A stretch of DNA of 44,839 nucleotides from Paludibacteraceae bacterium (lineage in GTDB: Bacteria; Bacteroidota; Bacteroidia; Bacteroidales; Paludibacteraceae): positions 1-44,839 of the forward strand of contig JAFUXZ010000135.1 in assembly GCA_017470795.1 (NCBI GenBank), in the 5' to 3' direction. Positions 4,661-44,839 of the stretch are shown here, piece after piece. The stretch's first letter is position 1. The number at the start of each line of letters is the position of its first letter. A program made the position numbers and the translations under genes. The notes beneath the pieces are model-generated. The model did not search any database, had not been told where the DNA came from, and saw nothing but the letters and a program-made list of their open reading frames with translations.

Positions 4661-4900
4661 TCATAACTCGCAGCGCTTGTCGCCTTCCTCGATCTGGCAG
4701 CCCTCGATCACCCACGTGTCGAGCGCGATCGACAGGTTGAAGAGTGCCACCTTCAGCGCGTCCTTGTAGGCCTTCCGAAGGATCGGCTTGTGATCCGCCG
4801 GAGCATTTGCATATAGCTTCTCGTGTTTCTTCGTGTGCTGCACTTCCTTCAGCTGACCGAGCACGGTTTCAAGTTCCTTCGTGTAGTTGTAGTGTTTCAT
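4661..4900 (-). CDS. Hypothetical protein
   Basis: 79-aa ORF with a GGAGGTG RBS and an ATGA junction. Confidence 0.55.
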   Translation of the reverse strand: MKHYNYTKELETVLGQLKEVQHTKKHEKLYANAPADHKPILRKAYKDALKVALFNLSIALDTWVIEGCQIEEGDKRCEL

Positions 4901-5289
4901 GGCTGCACCTCCGGGAAGGGAAGGCCGCCCTCTTCAGGTCTTGGCGGCGCCTCCTTGATCAGCCTCAGCGCTTCGAGTGCGCTCCCCATGCCTCCGTGTG
5001 TCGTACCCTGCGAGATCAGTCTTTTGAACACGGCAGGGCCGTCGTCACCGAACAGATCCTCCGCATAGGTGTAGAGCTCAGGATAGCCGTCACCATCGCC
5101 GCTCTCGTTCCAGTTTTCCGGCAGGGCGTCCTCGTCCACGTAGTCGGTCGGGTTCATGTAGAAGTCGAGATGCTCAATGACCTCGCGGGCCTCTGAGTTG
5201 ACGATCCTCTGGTGGTTTTTCATCACTCTCGCGATAGCCTCTGCGGTCATTCCGAAGCGCTCGATCAGATATGCGTTTACGTCTTCCAT
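4897..5289 (-). CDS. Hypothetical protein
   Basis: ORF 4897..5343 trimmed to the ATG at 5289 after GGAGGTG. Confidence 0.55.
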   Translation of the reverse strand: MEDVNAYLIERFGMTAEAIARVMKNHQRIVNSEAREVIEHLDFYMNPTDYVDEDALPENWNESGDGDGYPELYTYAEDLFGDDGPAVFKRLISQGTTHGGMGSALEALRLIKEAPPRPEEGGLPFPEVQP

Positions 5290-5293
5290 GTCT

Positions 5294-5527
5294 TCACCTC
5301 CAAGGGCAGTCTGTTGGGTGTCCCTCTTCATGCGCCGCTTCATCCGGCAGCGATTCGAGAGGGCAGAGCGGGTTGCGCTCCTTGTCTGCGTGTTCGTAGT
5401 AATGGCCCACAGGATACTTGAAGCCAGCGAGGACGCACTTGTAGAAGTCGTCGTCCGCCTTTACCATGAGAGGGCAGAAGAAGCAGCCCTCCGGCATTTC
5501 CATGTTCCTGATCGCGATCCTGCTCAT
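5294..5527 (-). CDS. Hypothetical Cys-rich protein
   Basis: ORF 5294..5704 trimmed to the ATG at 5527 (MSRIAIRNMEMPEGCFFCPL), which is ATGA-coupled to the upstream stop. Confidence 0.5.
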   Translation of the reverse strand: MSRIAIRNMEMPEGCFFCPLMVKADDDFYKCVLAGFKYPVGHYYEHADKERNPLCPLESLPDEAAHEEGHPTDCPWR

Positions 5528-6183
5528 GACTTCCTCCTTCTGGCCTTCTTGGCCGCCCTGCGCTTTGCGCGGTTGCCGTCCGGGTGTGGCATGTTCTTCG
5601 GGGAGTATGCTTTGACGAGTCCGGCCTTGATCCCGCACTCTGTACACATGAGCTTGACGCCCTGCGTCAGCTGCAGGCGGTGTGCTTCCGGGAACTCGTA
5701 GCACTCAGCCCCGCACTCCGGACAGCTGATCAGCTTCCAGTCCGGGTGGCTCTCGCTTACGTCGCCGAGGTTCTTCTTCATCGGCAGCAGCAGGATCCCG
5801 CCCTTGTCTGTCGGCTTCCTTGGTTCGACCTTTACGTCCGGGAAGGGAAGATCTCCCGGCACTTCCTCGTCCGGATCCTCTTCCTGCTCGACCTTCAGGA
5901 TCTCCAGCTGTTCGTCCTTGAATGTCAGTACCATGTCGGTGACCGGCTTCTCTGCGTCCCAGTCGGCCTTGAAGTCCTCCCAGCTGTCGTGCAGCTGCAT
6001 GCCTGCCTCGGTGAGGCTCTGCCAGATCGTCTTGGCCATGACTTCGGCTTCTGGATCCTCCCAGCCGTAAATGTGCCAGCTGTCCGGATCGTAGCTCCAC
6101 TTCGCGACGTAGATCTTGTGGCCGTCTATCGGCCAGCCTGTGTCCTTTGCTATGGCGGACACGACCAGTGGTTTGTATGCCAT
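5524..6183 (-). CDS. Hypothetical protein with a C-terminal zinc ribbon and basic tail
   Basis: CPECGAEC...CTECG motifs are present, and the protein ends in RAKRRAAKKARRRKS. The RBS is good. Confidence 0.6.
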   Translation of the reverse strand: MAYKPLVVSAIAKDTGWPIDGHKIYVAKWSYDPDSWHIYGWEDPEAEVMAKTIWQSLTEAGMQLHDSWEDFKADWDAEKPVTDMVLTFKDEQLEILKVEQEEDPDEEVPGDLPFPDVKVEPRKPTDKGGILLLPMKKNLGDVSESHPDWKLISCPECGAECYEFPEAHRLQLTQGVKLMCTECGIKAGLVKAYSPKNMPHPDGNRAKRRAAKKARRRKS

Positions 6184-17415: not shown

Positions 17416-19062
17416 TTACTTCTTGACCGACGCCATGGCTGCGATCGTCTTCGGGCCCACGAGGCCGTCCGCTTCCTTCGCGCCGAACATGTCGGTCTGG
17501 AACTTCTTGACCGCTGCGAGGGTCTTGTCGCCGTAGATCCCGTCGGCAGTTTCGCCCTGTGGGAGGGCTCCATACCAGACGAGGAACTCCTGCATCAGTG
17601 CGACTCTGTTCGAGATCTCGCCGTGTCTGATGATCACCGACGCAGCGTTCACGGATCCGATGTACCTGTGCACGCGCTTGAAGCTCGCGTACTTCTTGTC
17701 GGTCAGATCCCTGACGCGGATCGAGTTGTTCCACTTCTTGGAGTTTCTGACGTTGTCGTCGCCTCCGCCAGCCTCCACGAGCTTGCCGCCTCCGATGTAG
17801 AGCGCGACGTGCGTGTCGCTGCATAAGACGTCGCCCGCCTTCAGCTTGGACTTCGCAGGCTTGCCGAGATTCTTGAAGAGCGTCGACTTGTCATAGCCGC
17901 GGCCCTTGTGGAAGCCCCACGAGGTGCCCTTGCTGCAGAGCTTCATGGCTGCCTGATCGCAGCCGCCGTGAGCCCATGCTGCACCGACGAACGGATTGCA
18001 GCAGTAGGTTCTCTCATAGTCTACGATGCCGGCCTTCTTCTTGCTCTTCGGCTGCGTTTTGCAGAAGAAGCAGCCGTTGTGGTGGGCGTCCTTGCCGTGG
18101 CCATAGTGGAAGCGGTTGTCGCCAGCGATCCATACGGCCCAGCGGATCGCGTCCGCGATCACCTCGGCGTTCGTTTTCACGAGCTTCATGGTCGGGAGCT
18201 TTCCGGTGTAGGCTTTCTTTTCCTGCTTAGGGCTCAGGATCTCGTTCACGCGCTTCTGGACGGCGTTGTAGTCATAGCCGCACTGAGTGAGCGCCAGCTT
18301 CCTGCTGTCGCCGCTGCCCCAGCCGCCTGCGATCACTTCGCGCGCCAGTTCGTCCACGGACTTCTTCGCCGGTGTCGTCAGGCCGTTCCCCGTATAGCGG
18401 ATCAGCACCTTGAGTCTGCTCACATACCTGCCCGCGAGCTTCCTGTCGGCTCTTATGTCGTCGGCCTTGTTTTTGCAGCGTGTACTGTCGGAGACTTTGC
18501 CGTCTCCCATGAGTAGGATGAGGTGCTGGAACTCGGTGCCGGTGAACAGGCCGCCGATGTCGCCCGGCTGCACCTTCTCCTTCGGGATCACCTTGCCGCC
18601 GTTCCGGATCACTTTGATCTCCTTGATCTTCAGAGCCTTCTGCGCGATCTTCAGCGCGTCCGCATCCGTCTTGGCCTTCAGGATCTTCTCCATAGTGCCA
18701 TTGTCGAGCACGCCGCAGTTGCATGGGATCGGCAGCCCGCCGTGATGCCAGCAGGCGATCACCCAGCCGATGCACTGCCAGCCGAGGTTCTTGCCTCCGT
18801 GCGGGTGGCACTTTGCGCACTCGTGGCCGTATGGCTCCGTCCAGAAGATGTACCGGTAGTCCTCCGCGGCGGTCTTGATAGCCCACGCTCTGATGTTCTG
18901 AATGATCAGTTCGCGGCAGCAGAGCAGCCGGTTGACTTCCGTCTGGATCTCTTCCGGGTTGTAGCCCTTCTTCCGGAGGGCGTCGACTCTGGCCTGTCCG
19001 CTGCCCCAGTCCCCTGCGATCACCTCGCGGGCGATCGCCATTGTCTTCTTGTCTGTCGCCAT
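17416..19062 (-). CDS. Multidomain cell-wall hydrolase: two copies of (Cpl-7-like repeat + Cys-peptidase/NlpC-P60-like domain) plus a C-terminal PG_binding_1 domain
   Basis: ORF trimmed to the ATG at 19062 after AAGGAGG. AREVIAG-WGSG occurs twice. The C-terminus DGIYGDKTLAAVKKFQ...DGLVGPKT is a peptidoglycan-binding motif. Confidence 0.7.
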   Translation of the reverse strand: MATDKKTMAIAREVIAGDWGSGQARVDALRKKGYNPEEIQTEVNRLLCCRELIIQNIRAWAIKTAAEDYRYIFWTEPYGHECAKCHPHGGKNLGWQCIGWVIACWHHGGLPIPCNCGVLDNGTMEKILKAKTDADALKIAQKALKIKEIKVIRNGGKVIPKEKVQPGDIGGLFTGTEFQHLILLMGDGKVSDSTRCKNKADDIRADRKLAGRYVSRLKVLIRYTGNGLTTPAKKSVDELAREVIAGGWGSGDSRKLALTQCGYDYNAVQKRVNEILSPKQEKKAYTGKLPTMKLVKTNAEVIADAIRWAVWIAGDNRFHYGHGKDAHHNGCFFCKTQPKSKKKAGIVDYERTYCCNPFVGAAWAHGGCDQAAMKLCSKGTSWGFHKGRGYDKSTLFKNLGKPAKSKLKAGDVLCSDTHVALYIGGGKLVEAGGGDDNVRNSKKWNNSIRVRDLTDKKYASFKRVHRYIGSVNAASVIIRHGEISNRVALMQEFLVWYGALPQGETADGIYGDKTLAAVKKFQTDMFGAKEADGLVGPKTIAAMASVKK

Positions 19063-19073
19063 GGCATACCTCC

Positions 19074-20552
19074 TTAGTTGTAGCAGTGGTTCATGTCCGT
19101 GTTGCCTTTGACGCCGTCGACCTTCCCGGTGCTCGTGTACTGCCATAAAAGGAAGGAGCCCTTGTACTGGCACTCCTTATAGTACTGAGCACACCAGACC
19201 TTGTACGGCAGCTTGGCCATGTCGAGCTGGTTGTTCAGCCACGAGGTTGAGGCGTAGATCATAGCCTTCGCGCCGGTCTTCTCGATCTCGTCGCAGAAGC
19301 CCTTGATCGCTGCCGTCCTCTTAGCCTTTGACAGCACGGTGTCGTTGGCCCTGCCCGGGCGTCTCTTGCCCTTCTCGGTGTAGAAGACGTTCTCGCTGTC
19401 TACTCCGATAGGGTAGGCCAGCTCCACGCCCGCCTTCTTGATCAGCTCGAGAGTGTAGCGTGCTTCCTCCCGGCCTTCGGCCTCAGTGATCGCCTCGGTG
19501 AAGAAGTACACACCGAGGGCGAGCCCGGCCTTCTTCGCGCCGGTGATGTGGTTTATAAACATGTCGTCCTGATTCAGCTTCGCCGTCGAGCAGCCGCGGT
19601 ATCCGCAGCGGACGATCACGCCCTTGACGCCCGCCTTCTTGACTTTGGCCCAGTCGATCGCCGACTGGAACTCGCTGACGTCGATCACGGTGTGCTTCCC
19701 GGAGGGCATGGCTGCTGCTGCGGGTTTGCTGGGCGTCTTGTTCGGAGGTTTCAGCGAATTGATGATCGCCTGCGCCTTCTTCTTGCTGTTAGGCCCGAAG
19801 ATCCCGTCGACCGTCAGGCTGTAGGTCGCCTGATAGTCCATGATTGCCGCCTCGGTCTTGCTTCCGACGTCGCCGTCGACCGAGAGCTTGGCATTGATGC
19901 ACCAGTTCAGGAAGGTCTGCACGGCCTTCGCGTCGGCTCCCTTGGTGCCGTTCTTCACGGTTCCGGACGGGAGCTTCCCGGTGTACGGAGTTGTCGGCTT
20001 GTAGGTGGTGACCTGCTTGCCGAGCCTCTCGACGATCCAGACCTTGGCCACGCAGCCCTTCATTGATTTCTCGTAGCTGTACCAGCCGTCGTGATCTCTT
20101 CCGCCGGAGTCCTTGCAGTAGAACATGTGGAGCCCGTTCTTAATCTTGTAGCCGGTGAAGGCCACGTAGTGGCCGCCAGCCGTCCAGCGCGTCCCGTTTG
20201 GCGCCTTGTTCGAGTTGAACAGGATAATGCCGATGCGGTTGCCCTTGTTCAGTTCCTTGAAGGCCACACTCATTGGATCCGACCACACGCGCACGACCGT
20301 CTTGTGCCCGAGGTGCTTCAGCGTCTCGGTGATGCCGTTCCACGTTGTGCCCTGATTTCTGATAGCGAAGCCCTGTTTGATCATCCACGGGCGCAGGCTT
20401 TCAGGTGTCCAGTTTTTGTATCTGTCCTGCTCCATGGCCACGTGTACGCATGCGCAGCACCCGCAGCCGTTACCTCCGAAGGACGAGGACTTGACCGGGT
20501 ATGGTTTACTTGACCACCTGCTGTTCAGCTGCTTCCAGATCTTCTTGTTCAT
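19074..20552 (-). CDS. Endolysin: papain-like Cys peptidase, PG_binding_1 and GH25 muramidase domains
   Basis: ATG at 20552 after GAGGAGG. Cys/His pair in GCGCCAC...GGHYVAF. VDGDVGSKTEAAIMDYQ is the binding domain. VIDVSEFQSAIDWAKVKKAGVKGVIVR is GH25-like. Confidence 0.8.
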   Translation of the reverse strand: MNKKIWKQLNSRWSSKPYPVKSSSFGGNGCGCCACVHVAMEQDRYKNWTPESLRPWMIKQGFAIRNQGTTWNGITETLKHLGHKTVVRVWSDPMSVAFKELNKGNRIGIILFNSNKAPNGTRWTAGGHYVAFTGYKIKNGLHMFYCKDSGGRDHDGWYSYEKSMKGCVAKVWIVERLGKQVTTYKPTTPYTGKLPSGTVKNGTKGADAKAVQTFLNWCINAKLSVDGDVGSKTEAAIMDYQATYSLTVDGIFGPNSKKKAQAIINSLKPPNKTPSKPAAAAMPSGKHTVIDVSEFQSAIDWAKVKKAGVKGVIVRCGYRGCSTAKLNQDDMFINHITGAKKAGLALGVYFFTEAITEAEGREEARYTLELIKKAGVELAYPIGVDSENVFYTEKGKRRPGRANDTVLSKAKRTAAIKGFCDEIEKTGAKAMIYASTSWLNNQLDMAKLPYKVWCAQYYKECQYKGSFLLWQYTSTGKVDGVKGNTDMNHCYN

Positions 20553-20874
20553 CGTCTTCCTCCTCTTCATCTTCCGCTTCTGCTTCTGCTTCGTCCTCTT
20601 CGCCTTCGTCGAAGAAGTAGTCGCCGACGTAGCCGGCCTTCTTCTCAGCTTTCAGCTGACGGGTGAGGCCGGTGCCAGCGCAGGCCTCGTCTGTGAAGTC
20701 GTTGTTGTACCAGAACGCGATGGCCGCAGCAGCGACCGTGAAAATGTAGGAGACGATCCTGTACACGGTGTTGGCCGTTTCGTTTCCGAAGTCCGGCTCT
20801 CCGACCTGAGAGATCGCCTGATTAATGATTGCGACCGCCAGCAGCGCCGTCCTGATCTTGGTTCCTCTGTTCAT
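20506..20874 (-). CDS. Holin, SPP1 family-like, with an acidic C-terminal tail
   Basis: MNRGTKIRTALLAVAIINQ...FWYNNDFTDEA matches the SPP1-holin pattern. Two transmembrane segments are present. Confidence 0.65.
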   Translation of the reverse strand: MNRGTKIRTALLAVAIINQAISQVGEPDFGNETANTVYRIVSYIFTVAAAAIAFWYNNDFTDEACAGTGLTRQLKAEKKAGYVGDYFFDEGEEDEAEAEAEDEEEEDDEQEDLEAAEQQVVK

Positions 20875-21265: not shown

Positions 21266-22366
21266 CTAAAGTGCCGCTCCTTTGCGCTTAAAAATGACGT
21301 TTTCCGAGATCCATTTCTGGAGCCCGTAAGTGCTGCAGTGCTTCATGAGTCCGAAGTAGCTCTGCATAGTTGAGTCCACCGCCTCGAAGTCTATGAGGCC
21401 CTGCTCGTACTCCTTGGCGATGTAGAACATGCGGGCCTTCATCTTCCTGACCGACTTGCGCGTCAGCTTCCGGTAGCCCGGATAGATGCGGCAGCCGACG
21501 AAGGTGATCCCGCGTTTGACGAGTCCGATCGTGGTCTTGCTGTTTAGATCCAGATGCAGTCGGTCGTTCAGGAAGATCTCGATCAGTTCCCGGCACTCGT
21601 TCAGCCGCTTCACGTCCGAGCTCAGCAACACCATGTCGTCCATGTACCGGACGAAGAAGTGCTCGCGGAGCTCGTGCTTCACATACTGGTCGAGCTCGTT
21701 CAGGCATACGTTCGCAAGCATCTGGCTTGTCAGGTTTCCAATCGGCATGCCGACCTCGAAGAGCCGCTCCCACGGCGGCACCTCGTCGGCGTTCTTGCCC
21801 GGAGGCAGGCCGAAGGGTGTGTGGTCGCAGTTCACGATCTCGTCCATGAGCCAGTGGAAGCCGTCCTCGTCCGGGTATTTCCTGCGCATGATGCTGAGAA
21901 GGATCTCGTGATCCACGCGGTAGAAATACTTCGAGACGTCCAGCTTCAGGTAGTACCACGGCTCGGGCTTGCGATCGACGAGGGTGCACCAGTCCTGCAG
22001 CTTGTCAGCTGCTCGCGTGGTTCCTTTGCCGACACGGCAGCCGTAGCTGTGGAAGATCATGCCGTTGTCGAGCTCGCCATTGATCTGCAAATAAATCGCC
22101 CACTGGACGACGCGATCCCTGAAGCCCAGAGCCATGACGAGCCGCTTCTTTGGCTCGTAGACGTAGAACTCCCGGTACCTGCCGACCTCGTAGGCGTGCC
22201 AGAGCAGATCGTTCTGTATGCTGATCAGTTCTTCCTCGAGGTTTGCGCTGAAGGCAGCCACGTCGTCGCGGTACCACTTCTCCTTACAGGCGTTGTGATA
22301 TGCTTCCAGCAGGTTCTCCCACGAGGCGATGCGCTCCAGAAGGGAAGGCTTTACGGTTTCGAGCAT
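21266..22366 (-). CDS. DGR reverse transcriptase
   Basis: ORF 21266..22576 trimmed to the ATG at 22366 after AGGAGG. It carries the DGR-hallmark motif PIGNLTSQ and the catalytic motif YMDD. It lies adjacent to the TR. Confidence 0.9.
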   Translation of the reverse strand: MLETVKPSLLERIASWENLLEAYHNACKEKWYRDDVAAFSANLEEELISIQNDLLWHAYEVGRYREFYVYEPKKRLVMALGFRDRVVQWAIYLQINGELDNGMIFHSYGCRVGKGTTRAADKLQDWCTLVDRKPEPWYYLKLDVSKYFYRVDHEILLSIMRRKYPDEDGFHWLMDEIVNCDHTPFGLPPGKNADEVPPWERLFEVGMPIGNLTSQMLANVCLNELDQYVKHELREHFFVRYMDDMVLLSSDVKRLNECRELIEIFLNDRLHLDLNSKTTIGLVKRGITFVGCRIYPGYRKLTRKSVRKMKARMFYIAKEYEQGLIDFEAVDSTMQSYFGLMKHCSTYGLQKWISENVIFKRKGAAL

Positions 22367-22750
22367 TTGCCCGTCCTCCTTTTGCGTTTGGTTTTGGTGG
22401 CTTCGCGTGTGACAATCCATTGACCGCAGCAGAAGATCCGCAGCCGCCACCGTGCTGCAGTCCCCTGCAGGTCTTCTCCCGTATGAGGGACTGGCCAGTC
22501 TGCGCGGGTTGCACGTCGCCCCGGTTGTCCGGCTGCGGCGTGCGATCATCTTTAGCTTTTCAGCTGGGAAGTACACCCCTTTGACTCTTATGTTCCTGCG
22601 AGGCCTTGACCTTCAGGTCTAACGAATAGAGCCGGAGCGGAGCGGAAGCCGATGTTCGTGTTCGTGTTCGAGCGAGCGTTGTTGCCGTTCAGATAGAACA
22701 GACCTGCGTTCGTGCCGTTGTTCCAGTTGCCCCCGCGATACACGCAGCGC
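22367..22750 (-). ncRNA. DGR template RNA: TR (22636..22750) plus a 269-nt spacer leading to the RT gene
   Basis: No credible coding potential was found. This is inferred from canonical DGR organisation. Confidence 0.6.
22636..22750 (-). repeat. DGR template repeat (TR)
   Basis: 115 bp collinear with the VR, with no indels. In the VR frame it reads RCVYRGGNWNNGTNAGLFYLNGNNARSNTNTNIGFRSA, which is rich in AAC codons. Confidence 0.92.
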
Positions 22751-22779
22751 CTCCTTATACGGCATACTCCCCACGTCGC

Positions 22780-23124
22780 TCACTCGTCGGATCTGATCCA
22801 CCCGCCGAGCATGCGTCCGATTTCATTGAGCTCTTTGCTCCATACTTCGTGCAGTCCCGGAGAGATCAGACGATCCTCCGGGCTGACAGCTGTGTCGACA
22901 AAATTTCGCAGCACGTCCAGCTCGATGTCCATTTCGGCCTGAAGCTGGCGCCGCTTTTGTCCGCGCGACCGGTTGGCCTGAATACATAGCCGCAGCATAT
23001 TGCTGTAGGCTTGGTTCAGCTGTTCCCGGTAGACGAACTTCTCCGGCTTGCGCATGTTCTTGGTGCGCTCGCCGGTGCGGATCATGGATCGAACGATGTG
23101 CTGCCGCAGTTGTAACGTATCCAT
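22780..23124 (-). CDS. avd: DGR accessory variability determinant (Avd, four-helix-bundle type)
   Basis: 114-aa basic helical protein located between the target gene and the TR. AAGGAG RBS. Confidence 0.75.
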   Translation of the reverse strand: MDTLQLRQHIVRSMIRTGERTKNMRKPEKFVYREQLNQAYSNMLRLCIQANRSRGQKRRQLQAEMDIELDVLRNFVDTAVSPEDRLISPGLHEVWSKELNEIGRMLGGWIRSDE

Positions 23125-23148
23125 GTTTTGCTCCTTCTTCGCGGGGTT

Positions 23149-23172
23149 GGGGCGGCTTTTGCGAGCCGCCCC
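23149..23172 (-). promoter_or_regulatory. GC-rich hairpin downstream of the VR (9-bp stem, 6-nt loop)
   Basis: ggggcggct / tttgcg / agccgcccc. It starts 24 nt after the target stop codon and 44 nt after the end of TR/VR homology. Confidence 0.6.
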
Positions 23173-23195
23173 GGTCAGATTTTCAGATTGCCAGA

Positions 23196-24299
23196 TTAAC
23201 CGATCCCCTCAACATAAGCGGAGCGGAAGCCGAAGGACGCGATCGTGTTCGAGCGAGCGCTGTAGCCGTCCAGATAGAACAGACCTGCGCCCGCGCCGTA
23301 GCCCCAGCAGCCCCCGCGAAACACGCAGCGCTCGCTGATATTGTGGTTCCAGTACATGTAGTCGCCTTCGTAGTCAGCGGCGGCAGCGCCTTCGTCAGGG
23401 AGCAGCGCGAGCGCTCTCAGGAGCAGCTTCGCAGCGTCGCTGATTGAGCTATCGGCGGTTACGTCGCCGAAGAGGCAGCCCTTGTAGTCGCTCTGAGGAC
23501 TGGCGATGCTTGTGCTGTACTTCCATTTGTTGCTTGCAAAGTCGAGCTTCACGGTCGTGCCGGTCGTGTTCTGTACGGAGTCGCTAATAGAGCTGGTCGG
23601 ATCCACGAGTGTTCCGTCGGAAGCCTTGATTGCTTTCCACGCCGAGCTGGTTGAGTTCTGCGGATTGTCCGGATCCGCCGCGTTGTTGTTCTCGAGGATC
23701 TGCAGCTCGCCCCAAACGAGACGTATGCCGCCGATCCACTCGTTGACGTTGCCGTTCAGATCTGCGATGCCTCCGAGTGTCTTGTCGTGGTACCACTCGA
23801 CAGGGCCGGTGCCGGTGGCGACTCTCTGGATCCTGCCGCTGCCGTCGCGAGCCATTGACGGGATCGCTCTGTAGCCGGTCTCGCGGCTGTCCTTGCCGTA
23901 GTTGTTATTGCCGTAAGGCATGAAGCTGTTCTTTTTGCACCAGAGTGCGATCGCGGCCCACTCGGCTGCAGTCATAAGGTGCCAGCCGTTCCCCTTGGCT
24001 TCGCAGCGTGCGAGCGAGTTGTCGAAGTTGATGCTGTTCGCCGGATCCTGCGCTGGCAGGGAGTAGGCCACACCGTTGTGGATGCAGTTCTGATACTTTG
24101 AGCACCAGAAGCCGTCGATCTCGCGGCCGTTCACGAAGAAGGCCGGATGCACCGAAGCGTCGTCGGTGTTCAGCACGTCGCTGAGCTTAAACTTCGGGAT
24201 GTAGACCATGACCGAAGGCAGCTCGGTCTCGTCGAGGATCACGCTGTTGTTCGGTGCGATCATCTGCACCGCCAGATTTGTAAGGTCAAAATTTGCCAT
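23196..24299 (-). CDS. DGR target: C-type-lectin/FGE-sulfatase-fold receptor-binding protein with a C-terminal VR
   Basis: GNGWHLMTAAEWAAIALW and NVNEWIGG are FGE/CLec-like motifs. The C-terminus RGGCWGYGAGAGLFYLDGYSARSNTIASFGFR is the VR. It is the last gene of the tail-fibre block. Confidence 0.85.
   Translation of the reverse strand: MANFDLTNLAVQMIAPNNSVILDETELPSVMVYIPKFKLSDVLNTDDASVHPAFFVNGREIDGFWCSKYQNCIHNGVAYSLPAQDPANSINFDNSLARCEAKGNGWHLMTAAEWAAIALWCKKNSFMPYGNNNYGKDSRETGYRAIPSMARDGSGRIQRVATGTGPVEWYHDKTLGGIADLNGNVNEWIGGIRLVWGELQILENNNAADPDNPQNSTSSAWKAIKASDGTLVDPTSSISDSVQNTTGTTVKLDFASNKWKYSTSIASPQSDYKGCLFGDVTADSSISDAAKLLLRALALLPDEGAAAADYEGDYMYWNHNISERCVFRGGCWGYGAGAGLFYLDGYSARSNTIASFGFRSAYVEGIG
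23217..23331 (-). repeat. DGR variable repeat (VR)
   Basis: 98/115 identical to the TR. All 17 differences fall at TR coding-strand adenines. Confidence 0.92.
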
Positions 24300-27755: not shown

Positions 27756-28481
27756 TTACTTCTTTTTCTTCTTCTTTTTCTTCTTGCTGGTTTTCTTCTT
27801 CTTGGTAGCCACGAGCGACAGATCCTTGACTCTGACCTTGTTCTTCAAGCCCTTCAGCGTGGCGATCCCTTTGGAGATCTTCGTGACCTTGTAGGTCTTC
27901 TTCTTGACCTTCTTCGAGATCTTCTTGCCGTTGCTGTACTTGCTGCCCTTGATCTTGACCTTCGAGCCCTTTTTGATCGTGGTCTTGCTGGAGCTGGAAC
28001 TTGAAGCGCTGACCTTCTTGTTGCGCTTGCCCATGCGGCTTGCGTTTCCGTTTCCGACCTTCAGCGCAGACACGCCGAGGTAGCTGGTCGACTTCTCGTT
28101 GTACTCCTTAAACTGGAACGTCAGGGTGGCTTCCCGGAAGCGGCCCTTGTCGTCGAGCTTAATGCCTGAGACCTTGACGTCCCTCAGCTGTAGCAGCGGC
28201 CCGAACTTCGTGCCGTTGATGTAGAGATATTCCGTCGCCGTGACGAGCTTTTTCCAGCTCGCGATCTCGCTCCGGATATTGACGCCCGCGTTCGCATTGA
28301 GCGTCGTCTTGAAGCTGATCTCGATCAGATCCATGCCGCGGTTGTTGCTTAGCGAGTTGTCTTCCGTTCCGCTGTTATCGTCGGCGATCTGTGAATAAGC
28401 GACGCTTAGATCCTGCAGCGCTGTGATCTGCTGAGGGCTCACCGTGAATGTCTTCGGGCCCCATTTCGCCATGTCAGCCAT
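27756..28481 (-). CDS. Tail/baseplate protein with a lysine-rich SH3-like C-terminal region ending in poly-Lys
   Basis: The C-terminus reads ...KKGSKVKIKGSKYSNGKKISKKVKKKTYKVTKI...KKKKTSKKKKKKKKK. Confidence 0.55.
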   Translation of the reverse strand: MADMAKWGPKTFTVSPQQITALQDLSVAYSQIADDNSGTEDNSLSNNRGMDLIEISFKTTLNANAGVNIRSEIASWKKLVTATEYLYINGTKFGPLLQLRDVKVSGIKLDDKGRFREATLTFQFKEYNEKSTSYLGVSALKVGNGNASRMGKRNKKVSASSSSSSKTTIKKGSKVKIKGSKYSNGKKISKKVKKKTYKVTKISKGIATLKGLKNKVRVKDLSLVATKKKKTSKKKKKKKKK

Positions 28482-30018: not shown

Positions 30019-33000
30019 ACTGCGCCACCTCCCTCATGCTTACAAATTCTTCGAGCCAGTCGAAGAACTCTGCCTCGTGCGCCTTCAGCTCGGCCATGAT
30101 GCCGGAGCCGTCGCCGCCGTCGGCGTTGACTGTCGGCGACCATGTGAAGCCGCTGAAGTCGTAGTTGATATAGATGCCTCCGCCGCTGGCCAGACCGCCG
30201 AGACTGAAGTTGTCCATGGTGAGAAGCTGACCGGCCTTGGCGACCAGACCAGCCTCCGGCTGTCCGTATGATGCGACCGCAGAGATCGCGCTGTTCAGGA
30301 TCCTGTCGAGCTCGTCCCAGAGTTTCGACAGCGGCAGCACTGCTTCAGCTCCGGCCTCGCCGCCCACGAGCAGTCTGTTGCCAGCTGCACCGAACGCGGT
30401 CGGCTGTGTCAGGATGCCGCCCTCCTTGTAGTAGCTGACACTGAAGTGTGGAGCGCTTGGCGGGTTCAGGCTGAACTTGCCGCTGACTGACACGTGCGGC
30501 AGCTTCAGGTGTGGCAGTGACCAGCTGAAGTGCAGGGCGCTCTTGATCGCTGAGATCGCAGAGCTGACGGCGCTCTTCGCTGCGTTGATCTTGCTGCTGA
30601 TGCTGCTGTATATGCTGCCGAAGATGCTCTGCACCTTTGCGAGAGCTCCGGACAGCACGCTGCTGATCGTGGATCTGATCGAGTTGAACACGGACGTCAC
30701 GGCCGCCTTCGCGTTTGCGAGCTTGGTCTTGATCGTGCTGGTGATGCTGTTCCAGATCGAGGCCGTCACGGCCTTGACTGCGTTCCACGCTGCGCTGATC
30801 AGCGACTTAATGACGCTGAGCACCGAGCGCAGCACGCCGGTGATGATCTGCCATACACCCTTGAAGATCGTTTTGATCCCGTTCCACATGGTCGACCAGT
30901 CCCCGGTAAAGATCCCGGAGAACACGTCGAACAGTCCGGTCAGTATAGTGAGCGCTCCCTGCAGGATCGAGGCGATCGCAGAGAAGGCGTTCCCGAAGAG
31001 CGGTGCGAGGATCGCGCAGAGCTTCTCCCAGACCGCTTTTATCACGTCGGTGATGCTTGTAAACTCGAAGCCCATGTCGTTGAGCCGCTGCACAATGCCT
31101 GCCTCGAAGCCCGCGAAGGCTCCTTTGAGTCCGTTCCAGATCGAGAGGATCCTGTTCCGGAACTCTTCATTTGTCCGCCATAAGTGCATAAAGGCGAGCG
31201 CGAGGGCCGCCACGATCGCGATTATAGCCAGCACCGGAGCACCTACGCCGCCGAGGGCGGTGGCGATCCCGGTGAAGCCCTTCTTGACGTAGCCCAGCCC
31301 GGCGACGACCTTTTCCCACTTGGCGGCGATTATTACCGCCGAGAGAGCGCTGATCACGACGCCCAGCTCCGGCAGGTGATTAAGCAGCCACGTGGCCGCC
31401 GGTATCACGTCGTCGGTGATCGTCTGCACGATCTTCCTCATGGCCGGCTCTGCCTTGTCGTAGATCTTCAGCTGCAGCTCTTCCCATGCGCTGTTCATGT
31501 TCTTCAGATCGCCTGCGAGGTTGTCGTTCATGACCTCGGCCATCTCTTCTGCGGCTCCGGTCGATCCTCGCAGCGCGTCCTCATAGCCAGCGATGTTGTC
31601 CATGCCCTCGTTCAGCAGAAGGTTCAGGCCCTTGGTCGAGTCTGCTGTGAACGTGGAGCTCAGGGCTGCCGCTCGCTCGGCGGAACCCATGCCGTCGGTC
31701 GCCGCTTCGACGTCCTGCAGGATCGCGGTCAGGTCTCTGTAGTTGCCCTGTGCGTCCTGCACTGCGATCGAGGTGTCGCCGATCTGGATCGCGCCGTCCT
31801 TCATGCCCTTGGTGATGTCTCGCATGATCGCCGACATGGCGGTTCCTGCTTTCTCACCTTTGAGGCCTTGGTTGGCCATGGCCTCGAGCATTGATGTCAC
31901 GGTCTCGATGTCCTGCCCGGCCGCGTTCAGGTTGGCGGCGCAGTTCTTGTATGCACCACCGAGCTGCTCCGCGCTGGTGTTGCTGTTCGCCTGCGCGTAT
32001 GCCAGCATGTCGGCCATGTAGGTTGCTTCCCCGGCCTCCATGCTGAAGGCGGACAGGTAGTCAGTGACCATGTCGGACGCTGCGCCCAGTTCCATACCAG
32101 ATGCCGCCGCGAGGTTCAGAACGCCGGGCAGCGCTGCCGTGGACTGGTTGGCGTCCCAGCCCGCGAGTGACATGTACTTCAGAGCCTCCGCTGCCTGCGT
32201 GGCGCTGAACACGGTGGTCGCGCCGTATTGCCGGGCAGTGGCCTCGAGCTGTTCGAGCTGTTCGCCGCTTGCCCCTGACAGGGCGCCGACCTCACTCATG
32301 GCCGCACCGAAGTCCTGCCCCAGCTGCAGCACGTTCCCGGCGAGATTTTTCACGCCTTGGATCGCGCTCCGGATCGCGTCGGCCGCGAGGTTGGCGAGGG
32401 CTCCCTTGAATACTGTGAAGCCGTCCTCGGCCTTTCGGGCCGCCTGATCCGCGTCCTCGAGCGAGTGATCGAGCTTGTCCGCTGCCTGTTCGGCTGCGGC
32501 CATCTTGACCTTGTTTTCCTGCAGTTCTGTCGACAGTTTCTCGATCTGTCGGGCGAGCTGCTGCGACTCTTCGGTCGTGTCTTCCTCTGACAGCTGCAGC
32601 TCGACGTATCGCCTCTTCAGCTGTTGCAGGGTGCTGTCCTGCTGCTTGATCGTGCCCTCCAGCTGTTCGGTGGCGTTGCCCGTCTTATCGAAGCCGGCCG
32701 CCAGTTTTTCGACCGCGGAGTAGGCGTTCTGCAGCTCGCTCTTGTTCTCGTCGATCTCGCTGCTCAGCTGGTCGATCTGCTGCGCAAGCTGCTGGGCCTC
32801 TTCAGATCCTTCCTCGCCTCCGAGGGCGTAGTCTGCATAGGCCTTAACTGCCTGCTGCAGTTCCGCTTCCTGTGTTCTGATTTTTGCGGCGAGCTTCTCG
32901 CCAGCGCTGGCCGCCTGCATGGTCTCAGCTGACATTTTGTTCAGGCCGCTGACGGCGCTGTTCATGGCTTTCTGTAGCGAAGGACTTAACACGCCGGATA

Positions 33001-33031
33001 TCTCAATAGAGGTCTCCAGTGTCCTGCTCAT
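30011..33031 (-). CDS. Tail tape measure protein
   Basis: 1006 aa, with a coiled-coil N-terminus, hydrophobic central segments and repetitive S/A-rich helices. Position after the chaperone. Confidence 0.85.
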   Translation of the reverse strand: MSRTLETSIEISGVLSPSLQKAMNSAVSGLNKMSAETMQAASAGEKLAAKIRTQEAELQQAVKAYADYALGGEEGSEEAQQLAQQIDQLSSEIDENKSELQNAYSAVEKLAAGFDKTGNATEQLEGTIKQQDSTLQQLKRRYVELQLSEEDTTEESQQLARQIEKLSTELQENKVKMAAAEQAADKLDHSLEDADQAARKAEDGFTVFKGALANLAADAIRSAIQGVKNLAGNVLQLGQDFGAAMSEVGALSGASGEQLEQLEATARQYGATTVFSATQAAEALKYMSLAGWDANQSTAALPGVLNLAAASGMELGAASDMVTDYLSAFSMEAGEATYMADMLAYAQANSNTSAEQLGGAYKNCAANLNAAGQDIETVTSMLEAMANQGLKGEKAGTAMSAIMRDITKGMKDGAIQIGDTSIAVQDAQGNYRDLTAILQDVEAATDGMGSAERAAALSSTFTADSTKGLNLLLNEGMDNIAGYEDALRGSTGAAEEMAEVMNDNLAGDLKNMNSAWEELQLKIYDKAEPAMRKIVQTITDDVIPAATWLLNHLPELGVVISALSAVIIAAKWEKVVAGLGYVKKGFTGIATALGGVGAPVLAIIAIVAALALAFMHLWRTNEEFRNRILSIWNGLKGAFAGFEAGIVQRLNDMGFEFTSITDVIKAVWEKLCAILAPLFGNAFSAIASILQGALTILTGLFDVFSGIFTGDWSTMWNGIKTIFKGVWQIITGVLRSVLSVIKSLISAAWNAVKAVTASIWNSITSTIKTKLANAKAAVTSVFNSIRSTISSVLSGALAKVQSIFGSIYSSISSKINAAKSAVSSAISAIKSALHFSWSLPHLKLPHVSVSGKFSLNPPSAPHFSVSYYKEGGILTQPTAFGAAGNRLLVGGEAGAEAVLPLSKLWDELDRILNSAISAVASYGQPEAGLVAKAGQLLTMDNFSLGGLASGGGIYINYDFSGFTWSPTVNADGGDGSGIMAELKAHEAEFFDWLEEFVSMREVAQYA

Positions 33032-33049
33032 GCGCTCACCTCCTTGTTG

Positions 33050-33145
33050 TTATCTGTGTCTCTTGCCGCCTCTGCGTGCTGAGTGCTGCTGCTTGATCCG
33101 TTTCTGTTCTTCTGCCAGATCCTCGGCCGCTTCGGCGTACTCCAT
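33050..33145 (-). CDS. Small ORF in the -1 frame of the chaperone: either a TAATG-coupled 31-aa peptide or the frameshift extension of the tail assembly chaperone
   Basis: Hand translation gives MEYAEAAEDLAEEQKRIKQQHSARRGGKRHR. The -1 frame is open for roughly 100 nt upstream of the chaperone stop. Confidence 0.35.
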   Translation of the reverse strand: MEYAEAAEDLAEEQKRIKQQHSARRGGKRHR

Positions 33146-44828: not shown

Positions 44829-44839
44829 CTCGCCAGCAC
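44829..44839. repeat. Terminal direct repeat, right copy (CTCGCCAGCAC)
   Basis: Identical to 1..11. Confidence 0.9.

Follow-up and report, generated by a model that had tools for sequence, protein, structure and literature searches.

The DNA analysed here, referred to as the window, comprises the 44,839 nucleotides of contig JAFUXZ010000135.1 (assembly GCA_017470795.1, deposited as Paludibacteraceae bacterium) and bears on its minus strand a complete diversity-generating retroelement (DGR) cassette, in which a target gene with a C-terminal variable repeat (VR) is followed by avd, a template repeat (TR), a structured spacer and a reverse transcriptase (RT) gene. The 367-aa variable protein encoded by the target gene (23196..24299, –) is of the C-type-lectin / FGE-type fold and matches Pfam FGE-sulfatase (2.9e-6) and phrog_2889 (8e-133), its closest solved structure being TaqVP, the DGR variable protein of Thermus aquaticus (PDB 5VF4; E 6e-49, residues 27-363). 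Separated from the target gene by an intergenic region of 71 nt, the accessory variability determinant gene avd (22780..23124, –) encodes a protein of 114 aa with a pI of 9.6 that is assigned to Pfam bAvd (PF22296, 2e-16) and to phrog_3206, 'Avd protein of DGR' (1e-35); the TR begins 29 nt past its stop codon. The RT gene (21266..22366, –) encodes 366 aa matching Pfam RVT_1 (4e-21) and phrog_1423 (1.5e-137), with the bRT of phage BPP-1 as closest solved structure (8ub7, E 4e-42) and with intact IGNLTSQ (residue 209) and YMDD (residue 241) motifs. The layout avd-TR-RT with an upstream target and a small basic Avd encoded just upstream of the TR is that of DGR architecture B1 of Wu et al. (2018, PMC5758913). 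All DGR hallmarks that can be addressed in silico are present, namely an adenine-restricted repeat pair, an RT of the DGR clade, a VR in the 3' part of a lectin-fold target gene and an invariant TR accompanied by variable VRs. The preliminary description of this DNA had read the two repeats as a TR/VR pair, a reading now joined by every other DGR component in canonical order. Hence, the locus almost certainly represents an intact DGR of the order target-avd-TR-RT in the tail module of a phage of gut Clostridia resembling Faecalibacterium phage FP_Lagaffe (MG711461, in the following Lagaffe).

Pairwise alignment of the TR (22636..22750, –) with the VR (23217..23331, –, encoding target residues 323-360), both of 115 nt, gives 98/115 identical positions at a constant offset of 581 and without indels (plus-strand coordinates), exactly as previously described. 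All 17 of the 17 mismatches are found at template adenines of the minus, i.e., coding strand (T on the plus strand), at the plus-strand positions 22653, 22655, 22656, 22659, 22661, 22679, 22683, 22689, 22709, 22710, 22713, 22719, 22721, 22722, 22727, 22728 and 22739. This is the same list as had been drawn up in the preliminary description, and mismatches at coding-strand C, G or T are absent. Among the 27 adenines of the TR, 17 are changed in the VR (nine to G, seven to T and one to C), while 10 stay the same, the latter number likewise agreeing with the earlier count. The hypergeometric probability for 17 differences among 115 positions all falling on 27 adenines is 9.7e-14. In the frame of the 367-aa target reading frame, in which the TR and VR translations given before were obtained again, the template adenines reside in 10 AAC codons (not nine, as had been counted), three ACG, two TAT, one ATC and one GCA, with 14 adenines at first, 12 at second and only one at third codon position. 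They permit 1.8e16 variants at the DNA and 2.4e15 at the protein level, while a stop codon is never created.

Both TR ends are adenine-free (GCGCTGCGTGT at the 5' and GGCTTCCGCTCCGCT at the 3' end). The GC-rich 3' segment GGCTTCCGCTCCGCT is identical at the VR 3' end (23217..23231, –), and this 15-mer is nearly invariant across 29 family members; by analogy, the VR-borne segment is the likely counterpart of the (GC)14 part of IMH, the element for initiation of mutagenic homing. TR/VR homology stops abruptly at both ends. Past the shared segment, just 11/59 positions match, which is chance level and bears out the earlier statement that the repeats share a GC-rich 3' end and then diverge. A second VR was not found in the window, neither when non-adenine positions were scanned over the full length and in 50-nt sub-windows nor by tblastn with both Lagaffe targets. 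A 51-aa open reading frame (ORF) at 22588-22743 was rejected as a gene, as it is merely the TR read in frame. Beyond the window, relatives of the target were found at 47 IMG/VR loci; at 30 of these, the paired repeats measure 113-120 nt and are offset by 570-730, and nearly all of their mismatches coincide with adenines in the downstream copy. Exact-pattern scans of viral, genome and metagenome collections with the TR as a 115-nt A->N pattern gave no matches, the pattern being too strict for these collections.

The comparison of VR alleles in related phages, as proposed in the preliminary description, was carried out with ten near-identical phages from different samples or metagenomes, chosen from at least 24 contigs of public assemblies on which the Avd protein sequence is unchanged (exact-protein look-up). 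In 10/10 of these phages the TR is identical to that of the window over 115/115 positions, whereas their VRs are all mutually different. Nine of the VRs can be compared with the TR without gaps, and 127/130 of their differences lie at TR adenines; the VR of the tenth phage has a 3-nt deletion. Nucleotide diversity amounts to 0.148 in the VR versus 0.049 in the flanks. Over 6227 flanking nt, phage L050 shows 100.00% identity to the window, yet two VR positions differ, and identities outside versus inside the VR are 99.98 and 97.4% for L057 and 99.58 and 81.7% for L054. Polymorphism among the 11 genomes is zero over 22567-22796, covering the TR with its immediate flanks and the RNA core, which indicates purifying selection on both. 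An invariant TR combined with different VRs in near-identical genomes, L050 included, points to very recent activity of the DGR within the lineage.

The window, L050 and L057 have 14-15 VR substitutions in common and differ just in a 5-nt patch, at TR-adenine positions (TR positions 38, 41 and 42; window 23290-23294), which could result from short-patch conversion, from recombination or from a consensus chimera of a mixed metagenomic population, and no conclusion is drawn from it. Besides the VR, also target codons ~197-310 (23369-23710, –) are polymorphic, with a nucleotide diversity of 0.11-0.20 and identity classes of 75-85%, a variation far above that of the rest of the locus. A DGR-driven origin was rejected here because this segment consists of discrete diverged haplotypes with small indels and has no template; it looks like ordinary divergence or recombination of an insert in the lectin fold.

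The 269 nt from the TR to the RT start (22367..22635, –) are non-coding and give rise to a structured spacer RNA (Sp). A 12-bp duplex (22761-22772 with 22566-22577, –), whose 5' arm GGGGAGUAUGCC begins 8 nt past the avd stop codon, brackets the TR. Furthermore, the covariation alignment contains a helix P1 (22628-22634 with 22582-22588, –), a stem-loop P2 (22595-22617, –) with the tetraloop CAAG, which is UACG in many relatives and in BPP-1, and a stem-loop P3 (22554-22565, –) followed by AAAGA. The distal spacer domain, in turn, is kept only in the Lagaffe-like subclade. Pairing was evaluated for 31 base pairs in an alignment of 29 family members spanning from 38 nt upstream to 100 nt downstream of the TR. 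The 31 pairs are formed in 91.7% of the alignment cells, compared to 33-51% after shifting the partners by 1-3 columns, and compensatory double changes occur in 23/31 pairs. The observed score was reached by 0/500 shuffles. With RNAalifold, 56 pairs were predicted, 23 of them with compensatory changes. The bracketing duplex is particularly well maintained, being paired in 98.5% of the cells (29 sequences) and showing compensatory double changes in 7/12 pairs. Neither the spacer RNA nor any other part of the window has a match to an Rfam family.

Corresponding RNA elements have been described from the cryo-EM structure of the BPP-1 system and predicted in 207 other DGRs (Handa et al., bioRxiv 10.1101/2023.10.23.563531). 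Among them are a duplex of about 13 bp named 'cPRT Stop', in which a sequence upstream of the TR pairs with one downstream of it, and a stem-loop immediately 3' of the TR that carries a tetraloop cap and binds Avd. Judged by sequence and pairing, the elements of the window correspond one-to-one to those of BPP-1, with the bracketing duplex as predicted counterpart of the 'cPRT Stop' duplex and P2 as a candidate for the Avd-binding stem-loop. The position of these helices also bears on the RT start, which was set at ATG 22366, preceded by AAAGGAGG and used as well in independent gene calls on relatives. A longer RT ORF of 436 aa from GTG 22576 was rejected, since it overlaps the covarying helices, is broken by a frame-disrupting 14-nt indel in relatives and is passed over by gene callers in favor of ATG 22366. 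The deposited 437-aa RT annotation of Lagaffe (4665-5978 of our locus L001) likewise reaches about 70 codons into covarying structured RNA.

On the 3' side of the VR, the target stop codon TAA overlaps the first of three AATCTG repeats, which are followed by a GC hairpin and the avd ribosome-binding site. The hairpin is a GC-rich inverted repeat (23149..23172) starting 44 nt past the end of VR homology, with a 9-bp stem GGGGCGGCT / AGCCGCCCC and the loop CGCAAA. Between relatives the stem sequence changes, while pairing is kept. Loops of 6-8 nt ending in AAA are typical for the Lagaffe-like subclade, and GATA, GGCA, GGTA or GAAA is present in the majority of the remaining RT clade members. A function as intrinsic terminator was rejected, as a T-run is absent after the stem and a terminator scan makes no call. 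Efficient retrohoming of BPP-1 requires a GC hairpin/cruciform on the 3' side of the VR, and such structures, located 4-34 bp from the VR and with stems of 7-10 bp and GRNA tetraloops, have been reported for other phage DGRs (Guo et al., 2011, PMC3240598). By analogy, the hairpin in the window may be the counterpart of this BPP-1 target-recognition element, in line with its position and stem but not with its loop.

The preliminary description had also interpreted the repeat ends as IMH at the VR versus IMH*, its TR counterpart. This view stands insofar as a GC-rich, adenine-free shared end is followed by asymmetry, but a similar-but-different IMH* does not exist here, as the 15-mer is identical in both repeats and the sequences then agree only at the 11/59 positions mentioned. 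Because TR and VR are identical in the 15-mer and their flanks beyond share nothing, the mark distinguishing the recipient must, on sequence grounds, lie in the VR-specific flank with its CTG repeats and hairpin, a situation that has been described for some DGRs (Wu et al., 2018, PMC5758913).

Several observations weigh against the interpretation as an intact and active DGR. As TR and VR do not differ in their common 3' element, a classical IMH/IMH* difference is not visible. The hairpin loop has 6 nt (CGCAAA) and is not the 4-nt GRNA loop critical in BPP-1, and three VR-versus-TR differences in the near-identical phages are at non-adenine positions. For a TR:spacer priming duplex and a priming adenosine, pairings of the spacer with the 3' end of the TR were searched, but no register recurred consistently among the family members. 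The phage host search in species-representative genomes resulted in distant matches only (up to 75% aa identity, the best one to a Lachnospiraceae metagenome-assembled genome, MAG), and that the DGR of this particular genome is currently active is suggested via the population. The departure of the hairpin loop from the GRNA tetraloop would also suit a fossil DGR, active in an ancestor and now represented by a copy that has ceased to diversify, with the present VR as its frozen product, as would the observation by Gulyaeva et al. (2024, PMC11792537) that reads of cultured Lagaffe_CP revealed no variation in the VR, even though cognate genomes did vary. However, such a fossil state is very improbable in view of the intactness of all ORFs including the catalytic motifs, of the lack of polymorphism in TR and RNA core (22567-22796, 11 genomes), implying purifying selection, and of the different VRs in genomes whose flanks are identical or 99.6-99.98% identical. 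An ordinary partial gene duplication with a chance adenine-biased look, or a mutational or assembly artefact, would account for the existence of a direct repeat and for nothing more, and this explanation, left with hardly any probability, is already refuted by the adenine restriction (P ~1e-13), the same pattern occurring independently in 30 (IMG/VR), 65 and 36 other loci, the non-coding nature of the invariant copy between avd and RT, and the agreement of independent assemblies on the TR.

Within the flank that sets the VR of the intact DGR apart from its TR, the TAA and three AATCTG repeats at exact 8-nt spacing (TAATCTGGCAATCTGAAAATCTG; 23176..23198, –) form an array found on the VR side only. 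The motif TCTG-N4-TCTG-N4-TCTG occurs once in the window, i.e., at this site, versus 0.01 occurrences expected. Likewise, in 28/28 distinct flanks of the family, 3-5 CTG at a spacing of 7-8 nt directly precede the hairpin. For a broader sample, 57 distinct VR flanks were collected from 80 IMG/VR loci with RTs 40-80% identical to that of the window. Chains of at least three CTG are present in 32/57 of these flanks (25 with four and 4 with five repeats) compared to 0/57 TR flanks, and the corresponding numbers from species-representative genomes are 13/36 (all with at least four repeats) and 0/36. The 13 positive genome loci all have RTs at least about 45% identical to that of the window. In random 70-nt windows of the IMG/VR loci, chains of this length are found in 0.9%, and CTG is by far the commonest periodic trinucleotide (32 loci versus 12 for the next one, the overlapping ACT). 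All these array statistics are limited by the loci being related to one another. As a rough consensus, the repeat unit is W-A-A-CTG-R, with a spacing of 7 nt in 61 and 8 nt in 34 cases, whereas a sister subclade has CTTG repeats instead. Also the 21-bp IMH of BPP-1 reads TCTG..CCTG..CTTG, the middle motif of which is lost in IMH*.

A second VR, reported for Lagaffe by Gulyaeva et al. (2024, PMC11792537), lies within coding sequence and likewise has five TCTG behind it, spaced by 8, 8, 9 and 7 nt (32721-32755 of locus L059). Homologues with only 58-62% protein identity have kept 3-5 repeats, with codon phases shifting. This persistence at the DNA level inside coding sequence, through changing codon phases, argues for a nucleic-acid function of the array. 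A CTG periodicity beside VRs was not found described in the searchable literature, which excludes subscription-only papers. We tentatively propose, at somewhat less than even odds, that the CTG array is a part of the DGR target site that is sequence-specific and has not been described before, telling the retrohoming machinery which repeat is the recipient; it might act, for example, by binding the pentameric Avd, the RT-Avd complex or a host replication factor. Four ATCTG repeats and a hairpin as in Firmicutes phages were also seen in a DGR on contig JAQUYS010000047.1, which is binned as a Candidatus Nanoarchaeia MAG and whose RT is 60% identical to that of the window; this is probably a mis-binned phage contig and not an archaeal DGR.

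Compared to the prototype DGR of BPP-1 (mtd-avd-TR-brt), the window shows the same architecture including an Avd, and the BPP-1 enzyme is the best PDB match of its RT (8ub7, 4e-42). In both systems, the VR is located at the C-terminus of a tail protein with the C-type-lectin fold, the 3' repeat end is GC-rich and a GC hairpin follows the VR. The BPP-1 TR, however, is longer (134 versus 115 nt) and the spacer shorter (about 144 versus 269 nt). Moreover, homology in BPP-1 continues as the 21-bp IMH/IMH* with few differences, while it ends here at the GC-rich 15-mer, and the BPP-1 hairpin follows directly after the stop codon and has a GAAA loop, whereas in the window 44 nt with three CTG repeats intervene and the loop has 6 nt. 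The two BPP-1-specific target-site details, IMH* similarity and GRNA tetraloop, are not found as such in the window. The hosts differ too, with Bordetella for BPP-1 and probably a Gram-positive gut anaerobe here. With TaqVP, the target shares a nearly full-length match, the FGE-type C-type-lectin fold and a C-terminal VR of about 40 residues, but TaqVP is a cellular and apparently intracellular protein, while the target gene here is situated in a phage tail module.

The cassette is preceded by genes for Baseplate_J and Tail_P2_I proteins and three small conserved ORFs, and is followed by genes for a holin and two lysins. The target product is probably a tail receptor-binding protein, given the position of its gene downstream of the Baseplate_J and Tail_P2_I genes and the synteny with the 'BPP-1 Mtd-like protein' of Lagaffe. 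In the tail module, an ORF of 241 aa (27756-28481, –) has a long, lysine-rich C-terminal tail (KKKKTSKKKKKKKKK), encoded by an AAG/AAA-rich, homopolymer-like run (near 27756-27800) just upstream of the next gene that could be prone to slippage. The two large lysin-like ORFs (17416-19173 and 19074-20570, both –) come after an SPP1-type holin, and for the second one PG_binding_1 and Glyco_hydro_25 domains have been called in relatives. At this position, the near-identical relative L049 carries a CHAP/SH3 lysin instead, indicating a mosaic lysis module. At its two ends (1-11 and 44829-44839), the window has the same 11 nt (CTCGCCAGCAC), and near-identical contigs have sizes of 44.9-46.6 kb. Because of the identical ends, the window is probably a circularly closed assembly of one complete phage genome of about 44.8 kb.

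Lagaffe is the closest deposited phage, with 72% nucleotide identity over the target-avd-TR region, while the remainder of the window gave no megablast match among deposited phages. Gene order is the same from baseplate J through the lysis genes and the targets are 65% identical at the aa level, the respective Lagaffe genes being annotated as Mtd-like protein, Avd-like protein and reverse transcriptase. Lagaffe also has a 115-nt TR/VR pair (offset 583 versus 581 here) and shares the 3x AATCTG array, the hairpin position and the spacer RNA structure. On the other hand, nucleotide identity in the DGR/tail region is only 72% and the lysis and replication modules differ. In addition, the second VR of Lagaffe (32592-32706 of locus L059) belongs to a second FGE-type gene (31798-33060), and since the window has neither a second VR nor such a gene, related phages evidently vary in the number of their DGR targets. 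DGRs in Lagaffe-like Faecalibacterium phages have already been published (Cornuault et al., 2018, PMC5883640; Gulyaeva et al., 2024, PMC11792537). The DGR of the window is thus an already known kind of system in a new relative of Lagaffe.

Taken together with what is established for BPP-1 and other studied DGRs, the intact cassette would operate as follows. The avd-TR-spacer-RT region would be transcribed and the RNA would fold such that the 12-bp duplex brackets the TR. The RT-Avd complex would then bind this RNA and prime cDNA synthesis in cis from the spacer onto the adenine-free TR 3' end, copying the TR faithfully except opposite adenines, where this enzyme would misincorporate. The cDNA would subsequently replace the VR between the two adenine-free ends, the VR being marked as recipient by its own 3' flank with CTG repeats and GC hairpin, which the TR does not have. 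In the same way, the parts assigned to Avd, to the RNA elements, to the hairpin and possibly to the CTG array, as well as receptor binding by the lectin surface, are modeled on BPP-1 and other DGRs. As a result, up to 16 codons of the ligand-binding face of the C-type-lectin receptor-binding protein could be re-randomised (~2e15 protein variants), and the phage would presumably be able in this way to keep up with changing surface receptors of its host.

To a specialist, this element would come as no surprise; it is of interest chiefly for its clean population evidence and for the lead to a cis-element. It adds one very clean, apparently active DGR to those of Lagaffe-like gut phages and is useful for annotation. 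The comparative data provide covariation support, in a clade of phages of Gram-positive bacteria, for the RNA architecture that cryo-EM has revealed for BPP-1. The way in which mutagenised cDNA reaches the VR and takes its place continues to be described as incompletely understood (PMC12875486, 2026); if the proposed role of the CTG array is true, a conserved and easily mutated cis-element would offer a direct handle on this step. For the phages themselves, the locus represents a natural example of hypervariation of a receptor-binding protein.

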